In this document: positions 48,517 through 57,931 of the stretch, in pieces
Numbering within the stretch: position 1 is the first letter of the stretch
Layout: each line of letters begins with the position of its first letter
DNA from: a virus
Reading direction: 5' to 3' (one strand)
Virus record (IMG/VR): IMGVR_UViG_3300007712_000002
Span: 28,504-92,503 of that record
DNA: 64,000 nt
The notes under the pieces: generated by a model
Database searches by the model: none
Told to the model about the DNA's origin: nothing
The model's input: only the letters and a program-made list of their open reading frames with translations
Position numbers and translations under genes: made by a program

Positions 48517-48608
48517 GTTAGATAAATACAAGGTAATTGGAGAATAAAACATGCTAAAAGATATTTGGGTATAAACTACCAGTATTCATATTGCAACTAA
48601 AAAACTTC

Positions 48609-48662
48609 TTGACAACTGATGTCAAGCCATATATAGTGTCGAGTAAGAGTTGTGCATAAATA
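48609..48662 (+). promoter_or_regulatory. Sigma70 promoter plus late TAAATA promoter for the Cys leader
   Basis: TTGACA-17-TATAGT; CATAAATAC. Confidence 0.75.
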
Positions 48663-48683
48663 CCAGCACAACAGGAGAACGAA

Positions 48684-48818
48684 ATGACTTTTGAAGGATA
48701 TAGAGATGGAATTGTTCGTGGCGATGGCGGCACTGCTACTGTGTGCCCATGCGGTGAAAACTGTCAGTGCAGCCCATGCACTTGCGGTGGCAATTCCTGT
48801 GAAGGTTGGGGCGGCTAG
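48684..48818 (+). CDS. Cys-rich 44-aa peptide (candidate leader; metallothionein-like)
   Basis: AGGAG RBS; MTFEGYRDGIVRGDGGTATVCPCGENCQCSPCTCGGNSCEGWGG*. Confidence 0.75.
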   Translation: MTFEGYRDGIVRGDGGTATVCPCGENCQCSPCTCGGNSCEGWGG

Positions 48819-48881
48819 ACAATAGCTCAACCTTAAAGGATACAAGCCCCGCCTAGTGTGGGGCTTTATCATTTGAATTAT

Positions 48882-48963
48882 GTTGCGGGGCCCGGACGGG
48901 AAGGGGCCGGATTGCAAATCCGAGGCACGAAAGTAGCGAGTTCGACTCTCGCCCGCAACTCCA
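48882..48963 (+). tRNA. tRNA-Cys(GCA), extended variable region
   Basis: GTTGCGG/CCGCAAC-T-CCA; loop TTGCAAA. Confidence 0.8.
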
Positions 48964-48969
48964 AAAAAT

Positions 48970-49043
48970 GTGCTCGTGGCGGAAAGGCGACGCGCCGGAC
49001 TGCAACTCCGGTCATGCAGGTTCGAGTCCTGCCGAGCACTCCA
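48970..49043 (+). tRNA. tRNA-Cys(GCA)
   Basis: Canonical cloverleaf with CCA. Confidence 0.92.
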
Positions 49044-49200
49044 ATATATCCTATTACTATGCGGTTGTCCTCGTGGGGACCCCTTAAAACGAGAGTAAAG
49101 CTGAGCCTCAGCCGGTAGTCGCAATATAGGACAGTGTCATTAGACGTGAGATGGCACACCAACGATTGACAATATTGTGTTCACATGTTAAATTGAAAAT

Positions 49201-49509
49201 ATGAGCTATTTTCGTGATTTAAAAGTCTACAAATTGTTCCCCGAACTCAGGGCTACAATTAGACAAACATACATTGCAAAGTTGGCTGGGTTGTTGACTT
49301 TGCTTTTGTTTTCGCCACTCATAGCGATTGGTGTCATATCCATTGGTCTTGTCCATCTATTTGATTTGGTTGGGCAATACTCACTCTGGCCAGCACACAA
49401 GATAACCAACTGGCTTCATGACTATCAGCGTGATCAGATACGCTCAGCCCATTCTGTCGTCCCCATTGACAAAATCCAAGAGAGATTGGGAGATCAAGAT
49501 GACGACTAA
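49201..49509 (+). CDS. Membrane protein
   Basis: TM segment. Confidence 0.55.
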   Translation: MSYFRDLKVYKLFPELRATIRQTYIAKLAGLLTLLLFSPLIAIGVISIGLVHLFDLVGQYSLWPAHKITNWLHDYQRDQIRSAHSVVPIDKIQERLGDQDDD

Positions 49510-50638
49510 CATCAAATACTTTGACCGGTATTATGTTGGTCAACGGAACCAGGATACTGCCAGTGGCAAACCGTTGGCTTTTGCTGTTCCTGACGGTGAC
49601 GATGCCGCAGCAAAAAAACGCAAGGCAACAGTTGATGCCTGGGTCGCAGGATATTGGTCAGCACGAGACACTCGCGGTCGCCTCCGCAAAGACCTCAAAG
49701 AGATGGGCGAGGTTTACGATAATAAACCCATGACAGGTTTCCGCCTCACTGACTGGAGTGACCGTTACATCACTGACAACAAGGTAGTTCGTGTGCTTGA
49801 CCCAAGAGGATTCGAGCTTGAGATCTACATTCCCAACCTCATGGACATCATCCTTAACTCGGAAGTTGACCACGGCGAAATCAAGGATGAGCTGGTATGG
49901 CTGCGCGAAGGCAGCAACAATCGTCTGGTGCGCACATCAGATCCTGCTTTTGCTGAGGCTAAACAAAATATGGTTCGGGCTGCAAAGAAGAAAGCTGCAC
50001 CCAAGAAAAGTCACGAAGTTGGAGATATCATTTCCAACACCTGGGGCACATTCCTCTACATGGGACTCATGGACGTAGAGTTCGTTGTGCCTCGTGGCAA
50101 GCGCGTGGTTGACGACGAGATGACTCGTCAGTTCGGCACGCGCCGAGTTGGTGGTTTCTTTGGCTTTCCAGGTAACGGACCCATTCGTGAAGAAGTTTAC
50201 CAGACCTACTATCGAATCGACGATGACCGCCTTGAAAGCGTGAGCATTGGCCGCCGCCATGTTTACCAAGATGTTAATAGAGGTTGGAATGGGCATGTGG
50301 CAAGGGATACCATCACGTTCCGCAAGAGCAAGATGGCGACGCAACAAGTAGTGAGCTCTAATAACCTGCTACCTCCTGTAGGTGAGGAAAGTTATTATCA
50401 CGTTGACTATGAAGTGTTCATGTATTACGACGAGGATGGCCGGCTTTACACACAGAAAGAGCATTATGATCTGGAAGAAGATCTTAACAAGAACATACAG
50501 CGTCCGAATGAGCACAAATATCTTGAAGGCATACGCCAATGGAAGACCTGTGTCGTTCGGGTCAACGATGGACCACTTGAAACTGATCCAGTAAAAGGTC
50601 GCTTCCGTGAAGAACTGATTAGGGGTCAATATCATTGA
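49499..50638 (+). CDS. Hypothetical protein
   Basis: Long ORF; DN.P..GF...DPRGFELEI motif. Confidence 0.75.
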   Translation: MTTNIKYFDRYYVGQRNQDTASGKPLAFAVPDGDDAAAKKRKATVDAWVAGYWSARDTRGRLRKDLKEMGEVYDNKPMTGFRLTDWSDRYITDNKVVRVLDPRGFELEIYIPNLMDIILNSEVDHGEIKDELVWLREGSNNRLVRTSDPAFAEAKQNMVRAAKKKAAPKKSHEVGDIISNTWGTFLYMGLMDVEFVVPRGKRVVDDEMTRQFGTRRVGGFFGFPGNGPIREEVYQTYYRIDDDRLESVSIGRRHVYQDVNRGWNGHVARDTITFRKSKMATQQVVSSNNLLPPVGEESYYHVDYEVFMYYDEDGRLYTQKEHYDLEEDLNKNIQRPNEHKYLEGIRQWKTCVVRVNDGPLETDPVKGRFREELIRGQYH

Positions 50639-50871
50639 AGATCGACCTTCACGGATACACCATCCATGAAGCATGGAAGACTTTCAATACTGCGATTGAT
50701 CAGGCTTATTGGGCGGGCCGTCGCACTGTCGTGGTCGTGACAGGGCAAGGGGCTATGATGCAAGAGTTTGAGACCTGGGCCCGTAACCACACCAGAGTGC
50801 GCGAAGTCACTCAACACCAACACAATCCTGGAAGCTGGTCAGTCAAACTGAAAAAGTTCAAAAAAAGTTGA
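50635..50871 (+). CDS. Smr-domain protein
   Basis: IDLHG, VVTGQG, NPGS. Confidence 0.85.
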   Translation: MKIDLHGYTIHEAWKTFNTAIDQAYWAGRRTVVVVTGQGAMMQEFETWARNHTRVREVTQHQHNPGSWSVKLKKFKKS

Positions 50872-51126
50872 AAAAGTTCTTGACCTTTTGGTTTTGATAC
50901 ACTATATATGAATGGTAACGACGAAGGATTGCTGTTGTTCCTACCGAGGCGCTAACGGTCCAGACCCAAAAGGTCTCTAAGGATGCCGCCCGCCCAAACA
51001 AGTTTCGGTTAACAACAGACCGAATTACAATACTACACTGTTCGATTATGATAACAAAATTGGTAATGCGACGCCTTGGCAGCTGGGCTTTATTCAGCGG
51101 CCCCGAAAAAAGATCGAAAAAAGTTG

Positions 51127-56430: not shown

Positions 56431-56440
56431 ATACACACAT

Positions 56441-56515
56441 CAGGGTGTGGGAAAGTGGTAATCCGTCTGGTTTGGAACCAGAAGATCGCGAGTTCGATCC
56501 TCGCCACCCTGACCA
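56441..56515 (+). tRNA. tRNA-Pro(TGG)
   Basis: Canonical cloverleaf. Confidence 0.92.
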
Positions 56516-56620
56516 AAACAAAGGTTGACAAACCAAGTCATCCTGACTAAATCGTAATTTTAGTATTGGCAGGTAATAAGCTATTTTGCATAAATAAGTT
56601 GAAGCGAGAGAGAGATAACC

Positions 56621-57403
56621 ATGTATTCATCTGAAATGCGTCAAATAATAAATACGCTAAGTAACCTAACCGAATCCACTGTTCCAACCATAAATGATCT
56701 GGACCAGGAAGCACTGATTTCTCATTATCAAAAAAATGGATTCACAGCGTTCCGTCATAATAATCAGATTTGGGCACCCAAGACTGCGACCGCAAAGAAT
56801 ACGAACAAGTTGGTTTTAAACTGGACATCAACATTTCAAAGGAAAGACCAATTAAAATTTCGTGACGCTGCCTTCACATATGCAAGACTCATGATTAATC
56901 CCCTTACCAATGACATAATAGGGGCACAAGTGCAAGGCAACGCACAAGACATTCAGCGCAAGGCTGATGCTGAATCTGAAGAAAAATCTTTGAAAGATAG
57001 TCATCGAGAAATTGTTGGCAAGATCAAACAAGCAATCGAAAACGATCCAGAAGTTAAAAAACATTACGAAGCAACACTTGATGAACTCATACCAAGAGCT
57101 GGTCCTATAATAAAAAAGAATTATTCTGAATCAGAACTGGAACAATTCTATCGTGACATGAAAAAATTTGAACCAGAAGTTGAGGTTTATGTTGTCAAAA
57201 GACGAGGGAAAACAACCTATGTTGTGCGTCTGACAGATTTACTTACTACTGATTACATGTACCTGGACAAATATCCATATAAAGAAGAACGATTGCGAGC
57301 AGCAGTTGACGCAGCAGTTGAAGCTATTGGTCCTGAAAAGGTAGCTAGAACGACAATCAATACCAGACTATATGTTGATTTTTCAATCACTCTCAAAGAT
57401 TGA
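56621..57403 (+). CDS. Late protein, putative head-internal
   Basis: CATAAATA promoter; MYSSEMRQIINTLSNLTES. Confidence 0.7.
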   Translation: MYSSEMRQIINTLSNLTESTVPTINDLDQEALISHYQKNGFTAFRHNNQIWAPKTATAKNTNKLVLNWTSTFQRKDQLKFRDAAFTYARLMINPLTNDIIGAQVQGNAQDIQRKADAESEEKSLKDSHREIVGKIKQAIENDPEVKKHYEATLDELIPRAGPIIKKNYSESELEQFYRDMKKFEPEVEVYVVKRRGKTTYVVRLTDLLTTDYMYLDKYPYKEERLRAAVDAAVEAIGPEKVARTTINTRLYVDFSITLKD

Positions 57404-57463
57404 TGAAAGCTTTGCTGATTTGGCGGATCGATATTACAACACTTAACTTAAAAGGAGACAGTT

Positions 57464-57493
57464 ATGAAACGCAAGGTGAACAAAAAGCCGTAA
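57464..57493 (+). CDS. Lys-rich 9-aa candidate leader peptide MKRKVNKKP
   Basis: AAAGGAG RBS; codons AAA, AAG, AAA, AAG; directly upstream of three tRNA-Lys genes. Confidence 0.65.
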   Translation: MKRKVNKKP

Positions 57494-57551
57494 CTGTCCT
57501 GGAAGCCCGCAACGGTCCAGGACGGAGTGACAGACGATGTTGCACTATCTT

Positions 57552-57629
57552 GGACCGGTAGCTGAGTTGGTTTTAGCGGGAGGCTCTTACCCTCCGTCAA
57601 CGTGGGTTCGAATCCCACCCGGTTCTCCA
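57552..57629 (+). tRNA. tRNA-Lys(CTT)
   Basis: Loop CTCTTAC; CCA end. Confidence 0.9.
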
Positions 57630-57648
57630 AAATACTTTGTATCTTCGT

Positions 57649-57731
57649 GGACCGGTAGACGAAAGGCGATGTGGATTGCTAACGGGCTTTTAATCCGTGG
57701 TCAAGGAGTTCGACTCTCCACCGGTTCTCCA
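57649..57731 (+). tRNA. tRNA-Lys(TTT), apparent 8/4 acceptor/T stems
   Basis: GGACCGGT/ACCGGTTC; GGAG/CTCC; loop CTTTTAA. Confidence 0.7.
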
Positions 57732-57856
57732 ACATACAAAGTTGTCCTTTAAAGATTAGCTGCGGGGGTGCCCAATATGCTAACGCCAGTGACAAGGACG
57801 TGGAGGCATACACAGCCAGAAGCGAATGAGTTACGACACGGTAGGTATTTTGATAT

Positions 57857-57931
57857 GGACCGGTAGCTCAGAGGCAGAGCAGCGGACTCTTAATCCGCGT
57901 GTCGAGATTTCGAAATTCTCCCGGTTCACCA
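57857..57931 (+). tRNA. tRNA-Lys(CTT)
   Basis: Canonical cloverleaf. Confidence 0.92.

Follow-up and report, generated by a model that had tools for sequence, protein, structure and literature searches.

Leader-peptide transcription attenuators govern the trp, his, thr, ilv, and pheA operons of Escherichia coli and Salmonella. Attenuators that contain an upstream open reading frame (uORF) and respond to general translation stress are present in the mycobacterial whiB7 leader and at bmrB-bmrCD and vmlR in Bacillus subtilis. To our knowledge, the regulation of phage transfer RNA (tRNA) genes has hardly been studied. Reviews are available for the amino-acid operons (PMC1183508, PMC2965389), as are papers on the whiB7, bmrB-bmrCD, and vmlR attenuators (PMC10274678, PMC4191407, PMC9226507). 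It is debated what phages gain from their tRNA genes, and the proposals include compensation for codon usage and evasion of host anticodon nucleases (PMC10264068). In a literature search, no paper was found in which phage tRNA genes are controlled by a leader peptide or an attenuator. The stretch of DNA analysed here, called the window, consists of 64,000 nucleotides (nt) of IMG/VR virus record IMGVR_UViG_3300007712_000002, positions 28,504 to 92,503. It is the final 64 kb of a 92.5 kb contig and only part of a larger phage genome. Small proteins identical to those of the window are found on contigs of up to 332 kb, which indicates a jumbo phage. Three units that precede tRNA genes in it were studied: (i) at 48684-48818, (ii) at 51127-51437, and (iii) at 57464-57493. 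The original prediction regarded the three as one kind of system, in which leader peptides matched in amino acid composition to the following tRNAs gate the tRNA genes by ribosome stalling. It now appears, with moderate confidence, that they are three different devices: an attenuator (ii), an RNA switch before tRNA-Lys (iii), and a small Cys-rich protein (i). The placement of unit (ii) in a conserved family of ribosome-dependent transcription attenuators, found before tRNA genes in marine T4-like phages, is well supported by sequence comparison.

All coordinates are those of the window unless a related locus is named, and the parts of the three units and the tRNA-Cys, tRNA-Asn, and tRNA-Lys genes next to them are on its plus strand. 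Unit (ii) begins with a sigma70-like promoter (TTGACA, 17 nt spacer, TAGTGT) at 51127-51155 and a late-promoter motif at 51167-51174. The NATAAATA motif, which is found 20-35 nt 5' of many ORF starts in this contig, is taken to be the T4-type late promoter. The leader ORF (51225-51377) has 50 codons and uses 19 kinds of amino acids, with no Cys. The antiterminator 5' arm identified by folding (51359-51366) lies 16 to 9 nt 5' of the leader stop codon, and two antiterminator inner helices (51369-51403) enclose that codon. These are followed by an intrinsic terminator (51407-51437) whose 10-base-pair stem contains one bulge, closes a loop of 4 nt, and is followed by six T residues (-17.6 kcal/mol, z = -3.4). 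The terminator 5' arm is the partner common to the terminator 3' arm and the antiterminator arm. The antiterminator fold was calculated at -23 kcal/mol (z = -4.15), and the upper stem of the terminator covaries.

Relatives of the window were collected by using an RNase H-like protein (47186-47698) as bait, and 80 related viral loci were obtained (numbered with the prefix L). Three of these, L002, L003, and L004, share the local gene order of the window. Each carries a homologue of unit (ii), with the conserved promoter and late motif, an ORF of 46-50 codons, and an almost identical terminator. A motif search within the related loci gave the first 11 attenuator units, and a scan of viral contigs with the terminator motif raised this to at least 37 non-redundant units. 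In all 37 units listed, a drifting ORF of 18-50 codons is found at the same place, with the antiterminator arm within its last codons and an intrinsic terminator behind it. The arm is located at -16 to -11 from the stop codon in 17 of the 37 and within -21 to -2 in every one. This position is presumably inside the footprint of a terminating ribosome or at its trailing edge. In the first 11 units, the antiterminator arm is an identical copy of the terminator 3' arm. When the nascent RNA of these units was folded up to the terminator 5' arm, the antiterminator formed in 11 of 11 (-15 to -26 kcal/mol). The pairing closes one or two inner helices, whose sequences differ between phages. The family statistics given here were not corrected for shared ancestry.

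The upstream pairing appears to be specific to small ORFs and tRNA genes. A total of 115 distinct terminators with the same stem motif were compared by context. The pairing was present in 69% of the 55 that follow an ORF of 18-60 codons, in none of the 20 behind long ORFs, and in one of the 40 that had no ORF. It was found for 92% of real units and for 23% when the upstream sequence was shuffled. A tRNA gene on the same strand starts no more than 15 nt behind the terminator in 11 of the 37 units listed, no more than 400 nt behind it in 28, and no more than 1000 nt behind it in 33. Among the control terminators, a same-strand tRNA gene within 1 kb was seen in 0 of 20 and 1 of 40, or 1 of 60 in all. 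Where a tRNA gene starts just a few bases after the six U residues of the terminator, readthrough is the only way in which it can be transcribed. A scan that did not use the motif, in which the terminator 3'-arm hexamer had to be repeated 25-65 nt upstream, returned 42 of 407 terminators, compared with 8 for the reversed hexamer. The same three-copy design was found with an unrelated stem before a tRNA block in L121 and its near-identical copy L203. In L024, before tRNA-Trp, one base has changed in all three copies. Structurally, unit (ii) is thus built like a leader-peptide attenuator. A short ORF precedes the regulated genes on one transcript, an intrinsic terminator separates the two, and the antiterminator, which overlaps the stretch travelled by the ribosome, cannot coexist with the terminator. 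Regulatory codons cognate to the controlled tRNA were found neither in unit (ii) nor in the 37 units listed.

The leader peptide itself appears to be of little importance. Homologous leader ORFs differ to a similar extent at codon positions 1, 2, and 3, and the frame stays open. This even spread indicates that the peptide is hardly constrained, although a frame of 18-50 codons and the position of the stop are kept. Such a pattern would be expected where the act of translation outweighs the peptide product. The bases of the arm are conserved as RNA, since the codon that precedes it varies (Lys, Gly, Arg, Met, Thr, and Val) with its last G kept, and the conserved arm bases are read as other residues in L041 and L089. 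A Pfam search of the family's leaders gave no match. The amino-acid match claimed for leader (ii) did not hold in the family, as the amino acid of the next tRNA is not overrepresented in the leaders of the 37 units listed. The tRNAs behind them are for the CAU anticodon, Cys, Trp, Leu, Glu, or mixed blocks. Several units use 19-20 kinds of amino acids in only 30-38 residues (P about 1e-3 each). The use of all 20 amino acids was considered as a rule for the family and was rejected as no more than a tendency, other units being average. With leader codons that are not matched to the array, the leader of unit (ii) reads as a general gauge of translation speed and not as a sensor of one amino acid.

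A working model can be proposed for unit (ii). A ribosome close behind the polymerase that has reached the stop codon would cover the upstream copy, the terminator 5' arm would pair with the 3' arm, and transcription would terminate. A ribosome that lags anywhere in the ORF would leave the copy free as the 5' arm emerges, and the antiterminator would form first and allow readthrough into the tRNA genes. Lagging could be caused by scarcity of any charged tRNA or by a low number of ribosomes. Unlike the trp leader, unit (ii) has no further upstream helix, and an untranslated leader should therefore read through. The link made in the original prediction to host anticodon nucleases is speculation. 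Its broader idea of a translated leader that gates a terminator has comparative support in unit (ii), but units (i) and (iii) have no terminator that could be gated.

The sequence between unit (ii) and the array contains several other elements. Unit (ii) is about 800 nt 5' of the first tRNA gene of the main array, tRNA-Asn (52175-52249, ARAGORN), and the terminator, a promoter, and about 640 nt of other RNA lie between. The promoter is an additional sigma70-like one at 51505-51533. The window's clade has acquired such promoters 3' of the terminator, and they are absent from seven units in which the next element is directly 3' of the terminator. No late motif is present between 51440 and 53482. 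The added promoter would feed the array directly, and the gate would therefore matter mainly for late transcripts that start from 51167. A conserved structured RNA element follows at 51553-51665 (plus strand), for which eight sequences show compensatory changes in 8 of 13 predicted pairs. This element of about 110 nt is located between the leader terminator and the tRNA blocks in eight phages. In seven other phages, the terminator is followed directly by the element and then by a tRNA block. Its positions include L003 12108-12232, L004 13361-13490, L096 9130-9245, L152 5396-5510, L174 1779-1900, and L140 8026-8140. No Rfam family matches the unit (ii) attenuator or the structured element. In a search of 651 nt, a weak match to YrlA, a Y RNA-like family, was obtained at 51860-51955 (23.9 bits, E = 0.011). 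It includes a tRNA-like T arm and is located 5' of the first tRNA gene in the array. Immediately 5' of the unit (ii) promoters, there is an ORF for a Smr-domain protein of 78 amino acids (50635-50871). The conserved promoter (AAAAGTT, one variable base, TTGAC) is present a third time at 50872, and L002 and L004 have a promoter at the equivalent place. About 200 nt (50872-51105) with no convincing ORF separate this copy from the unit (ii) promoter, and its transcript may be a small RNA.

Unit (iii) appears to be a different type of device. A ribosome-binding site (RBS) with the sequence AAAGGAG (57451-57457) precedes an ORF of nine codons (57464-57493), four of which encode Lys. A hairpin (57494-57525) is located directly 3' of the stop codon, and its 5' strand can alternatively pair with the RBS region. 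In addition, 57513-57522 can pair with 57548-57557 to form an anti-acceptor helix that covers the RNase P site together with the initial 6 nt of tRNA-Lys. These alternatives form a three-way switch with two predicted states. In state A, the strand just 3' of the stop codon is taken up by the RBS region, and the anti-acceptor helix (57513-57522 with 57548-57557) forms over the RNase P site. In state B, this post-stop strand is instead paired with 57516-57525, and both the RBS region and the 5' end of the tRNA are freed. The fold of the unit has a z of -4.0. Among 619 tRNA genes with free upstream sequence, the anti-acceptor duplexes of L002 (-19.5 kcal/mol) and the window (-18.3 kcal/mol) rank first and second, where the mean is -6.8 kcal/mol and the standard deviation is 2.4. 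The L002 module is located before three tRNA-Lys genes and has an RBS, an ORF of eight codons with four Lys, a post-stop hairpin with the same helices, and complementarity to the 5' end of the tRNA. The gene upstream of the module is unrelated between L002 and the window.

There is no terminator in unit (iii). Its hairpin has no U-tract, so it cannot act by classic attenuation. The likeliest reading of the predicted folds is that translation of the Lys mini-ORF controls the folding and maturation of the tRNA. A ribosome that finishes the mini-ORF would open the post-stop hairpin, and the freed strand would sequester the 5' acceptor strand of tRNA-Lys and hinder maturation. A ribosome stalled at the Lys codons would leave the hairpin closed, and tRNA-Lys could then fold. 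The three tRNA-Lys genes expected behind this ORF were recovered in part. Two are solid (CTT anticodon, ARAGORN and Rfam) at 57552-57629 and 57857-57931, but the sequence between them (57654-57729) is only tRNA-like, with a UUU anticodon loop, an aberrant D arm, 18.2 bits, and no ARAGORN call. It may be a degenerate tRNA-Lys.

The expectation that leader and tRNA agree in amino acid, which failed for unit (ii), was borne out, in composition only, for the small ORFs of the window's clade. About 1,070 tRNA genes in the loci were surveyed for RBS-bearing mini-ORFs no more than 130 nt upstream, and 63 were found. Seven of these have a strongly biased composition, and six of the seven match the next tRNA. 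The matching ones are the Lys mini-ORFs of the window and L002 and the Glu-rich ORFs that run into tRNA-Glu in L002, L003, and L004. The latter three are Glu/His-rich ORFs of 15 codons with an RBS and almost no U, located directly behind the leader terminator (L002 13409-13455, L003 11743-11790, and L004 12117-12164). They read into the 5' end of tRNA-Glu, and in L003 and L004 the stop codon is within the tRNA. The window does not have this unit. In more distant phages, a conserved basic ORF of 44-48 amino acids, of which about 20% are Lys, extends into the 5' end of tRNA-Lys and has its stop codon inside the tRNA (L009 5348-5491, L033 4142-4290, and L034 6214-6375). Cleavage by RNase P would thus leave its mRNA with no stop codon. 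These K/R-rich ORFs were considered as possible ArfA-like rescue factors, and this was rejected when no match to ArfA, Pfam, NCBIfam, or PDB was found.

Unit (i) is most likely a genuine small protein, judging by its sequence. A sigma70-like promoter (48609-48637) and a T4-type late-promoter motif (48655-48662) were located, in agreement with the dual layout proposed for units (i) and (ii). They precede an ORF (48684-48818) with AGGAG 7 nt before the ATG. The ORF encodes 44 amino acids with seven Cys in a CxC pattern and a C-terminal EGWGG. All three short ORFs of the original prediction are present, with 44, 50, and 9 amino acids, but the RBS proposed for each is clear only in units (i) and (iii). 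The promoter, the short 5' untranslated region, and the RBS of unit (i) resemble those of ordinary late genes. The homologue in L002 has 38 amino acids and keeps the N-terminal and C-terminal residues and the Cys spacing. Between the two, the codons for Cys, Gly, Asp, and Pro show synonymous changes, and the non-Cys residues are conserved. One further homologue, of 44 amino acids (P0018), emerged when 1.8 billion proteins were searched with a profile. The core Cys motif is also found within phage proteins of 117-322 amino acids that have no nearby tRNA gene. The larger phage proteins of L210-L214 (for example, L212 2776-3315) combine the motif with a second CxC and an HGDG motif and look membrane-anchored. 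Their Cys motif may be an undescribed metal-binding module. The Pfam family PF02068 (PEC-metallothionein) matched the window's ORF at 24.7 bits (E = 3e-5), which is below the cut-off of 31.8, and the L002 homologue had no match.

As proposed originally, the Cys-rich ORF precedes two tRNA-Cys (GCA) genes. The one at 48970-49043 is standard (ARAGORN; Rfam, 61 bits). The one at 48882-48960 is of an unusual type, in that its variable arm is long, its discriminator base is U, and its CCA end is encoded (Rfam tRNA, 38.6 bits; ARAGORN at relaxed settings only). This type recurs in L002 (11443-11520), L087 (5613-5691), L090 (8376-8454), L089 (about 6686-6766), and L086, and in marine phage contigs it is missed by ARAGORN at default settings. 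In L086, L087, L089, and L090, the unusual tRNA-Cys is preceded by things other than a Cys-rich ORF. A hairpin with a poor U-tail (48844-48866) was found between the ORF and the tRNA-Cys genes, which suggests a weak terminator or protection of the mRNA 3' end. At the equivalent position, L002 has a different hairpin with no U-tract. Mutually exclusive pairings had been proposed for all three units. They are strong and conserved in unit (ii), and those of unit (iii) are predicted in both the window and L002, but those of unit (i) are predicted only in the window and are not kept in L002 (z = -1.7, not unusual). It is most likely that the ORF encodes a small Cys-rich metal-binding protein whose mRNA is shared with the two tRNA-Cys genes. 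A leader role is less likely than this protein role.

Several points weigh against these readings. The key helix is invariant in most units of family (ii) partly because the units were retrieved by that terminator motif, and the evidence for covariation of the switch thus comes from three loci, namely L121, the nearly identical copy of it in L203, and L024. The RBS of unit (ii) in the window is weak, with no GGAG-type motif, and such a motif is missing from 12 of the 37 units listed. Translation of the leader and use of the terminator in unit (ii) are inferred. In the window, the unit is followed by a promoter rather than by a tRNA gene. The 19 kinds of amino acids in the window's 50-residue leader are unremarkable by themselves (P = 0.18). 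In the family as a whole, the excess of kinds is modest (mean z = 0.93, t-test P = 2e-5, with relatedness uncorrected), and one subfamily is average. Unit (iii) is known from two fairly similar genomes. The first 13 nt of its ORF are identical to the start of the basic ORF found before tRNA-Lys in more distant phages, which in L009 runs 47 codons into tRNA-Lys, so the Lys mini-ORF could be a shortened relic of it. Finally, unit (i) ends as several leaders of family (ii) do (EG, an aromatic residue, GG, and stop) and adjoins tRNA-Cys in both the window and L002.

These points leave room for other explanations. In one, close to the original prediction, all three ORFs are leaders matched to the tRNAs that follow, and each senses its own charged tRNA by classic attenuation. 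The Cys-rich ORF before tRNA-Cys in the window and L002, the Lys-rich ORF before tRNA-Lys, and the Glu-rich mini-ORFs before tRNA-Glu in three relatives would all agree with this. Family (ii), however, has no enrichment for the following tRNA, and terminators are lacking in unit (iii) and in the Glu units. The unit (i) hairpin is followed by a poor U-tail in the window and by none in L002, and ordinary proteins also contain the Cys motif of this unit. Uniform matched leaders are thus quite improbable. It is also conceivable, but rather unlikely, that nothing here is regulatory, and that ordinary small phage genes or relics with ordinary terminators are located in a tRNA region rich in small ORFs. 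Several assemblies carry gene-caller annotations for (i) and (ii), the tRNA regions also contain small ORFs, among them those of homing endonucleases, and unit (iii) may stem from the longer basic ORF. This explanation does not account for an antiterminator that is tied to small ORFs and tRNA genes with a near-zero background, or for the 11 units listed in which the tRNA starts within 15 nt of the terminator and can be reached by readthrough only. The peptide of unit (ii) also drifts with no codon-position bias, and the anti-acceptor helices of unit (iii) are the two strongest among the 619 tRNA genes.

Two further explanations concern unit (ii) only. It could be a self-contained small or dual-function RNA whose folds set its own stability or the display of an anti-Shine-Dalgarno-like 5' arm, rather than readthrough into the tRNA genes. 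The stem bases are invariant and resemble Shine-Dalgarno and anti-Shine-Dalgarno sequences, and a promoter follows the unit in the window, L049, and L090, so that it can stand alone there. In many units, however, the tRNA follows the U-tract so closely that a promoter would not fit between them, and the stem of L121 is not Shine-Dalgarno-like. A small RNA of this kind therefore has a low probability. The leader could instead be a specific arrest peptide like TnaC or SecM, which stalls on a small molecule or a factor and does not respond to tRNA supply. A few residues do recur, namely an RF or RW pair and an EG pair, and the length of the ORF is constrained. The EG pair is explained by the RNA arm, however, as L041 and L089 read the same bases as other residues, and the rest of the peptide drifts freely. 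An arrest peptide is accordingly very improbable. A ribosome-dependent attenuator that senses translation in general remains the preferred reading of unit (ii).

About 35 tRNA genes were identified by ARAGORN and Rfam from 48.9 kb to the end of the window. The main array was said to encode tRNAs for the same 19 amino acids that leader (ii) contains. The leader does contain 19 kinds and no Cys, but at default settings the array has tRNAs for 16 amino acids, and those for Trp, Ser, and Tyr appear in relaxed calls only. A doubtful further tRNA-Cys call by ARAGORN (54377-54464) scores 22 bits against the tRNA-Sec model, so the two tRNA-Cys genes named in the original prediction may not be the only ones, all the more as the window is part of a genome of roughly 332 kb. 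An ORF for an HNH endonuclease (53508-54023) is located within the array. A permuted transfer-messenger RNA gene (41223-41475; Rfam, 110 bits) is 7 kb 5' of the tRNA region. Judged by ribonucleotide reductase, the nearest named phage is Rhizobium phage RHph_I1_18 (69% identity), which has only five tRNA genes and no units of the (i)-(iii) kind. Other searches for relatives gave little. Neither the region nor two of its peptides had a relative in a phage collection that was searched at the DNA and peptide levels, locus searches with neighbour proteins of 406 and 260 amino acids gave no match, and a word-index search with the Cys peptide matched only itself. A scan of a single metagenome gave one near-identical copy and two chance matches.

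Taken together, the units could indicate that the clade runs a layered, translation-sensing control of tRNA supply. A generic attenuator would be located at the heads of tRNA blocks, and mini-ORFs with cognate codons (Lys in the window, Glu in relatives) would gate the maturation of single tRNAs, with a ribosome or a leader strand occupying the 5' acceptor strand of the tRNA. This combined scheme is tentative and, as a whole, doubtful. If the conserved gate that links tRNA transcription to ribosome speed is real, the phage would measure the translation state of its host and top up tRNAs on demand. If the Lys unit works as proposed, translation-dependent folding of a tRNA precursor would be a new control point, and no described precedent for mini-ORF control of tRNA processing was found in the literature. 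Because unit (ii) is compact and self-contained and occurs in many uncultured marine phages, it lends itself to simple reporter tests.

The three units can be compared with systems that are already described. The protein of unit (i) is like metallothioneins in its small size and CxC spacing (16% Cys) and in its weak match to the plant PEC profile. It differs from them in that it falls below the Pfam cut-off, is phage-encoded, is co-transcribed with tRNA-Cys, and has a C-terminus like that of family (ii). T-box riboswitches, like unit (ii), tie the state of the tRNA pool to readthrough through the choice of terminator or antiterminator. T-boxes, however, bind uncharged tRNA directly and need no ORF, whereas a conserved ORF overlaps the switch in unit (ii), and no Rfam match to T-box was found in 40000-64000 at E <= 0.1. 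Unit (ii) shares with the amino-acid operon attenuators a short, presumably translated leader, an intrinsic terminator, and an antiterminator that the lead ribosome would set, where a ribosome at the stop codon favours the terminator. Unlike them, it targets phage tRNA genes and has neither a run of regulatory codons nor an upstream '1:2' helix. As in whiB7, bmrB, and vmlR, there is no specific codon run, and any slowing of a ribosome in the uORF would favour readthrough. Those attenuators control cellular resistance or stress genes, whereas unit (ii) is located in phage tRNA arrays behind early and late phage promoters. By analogy, the logic of unit (ii) is closest to that of these generic translation-stress attenuators.

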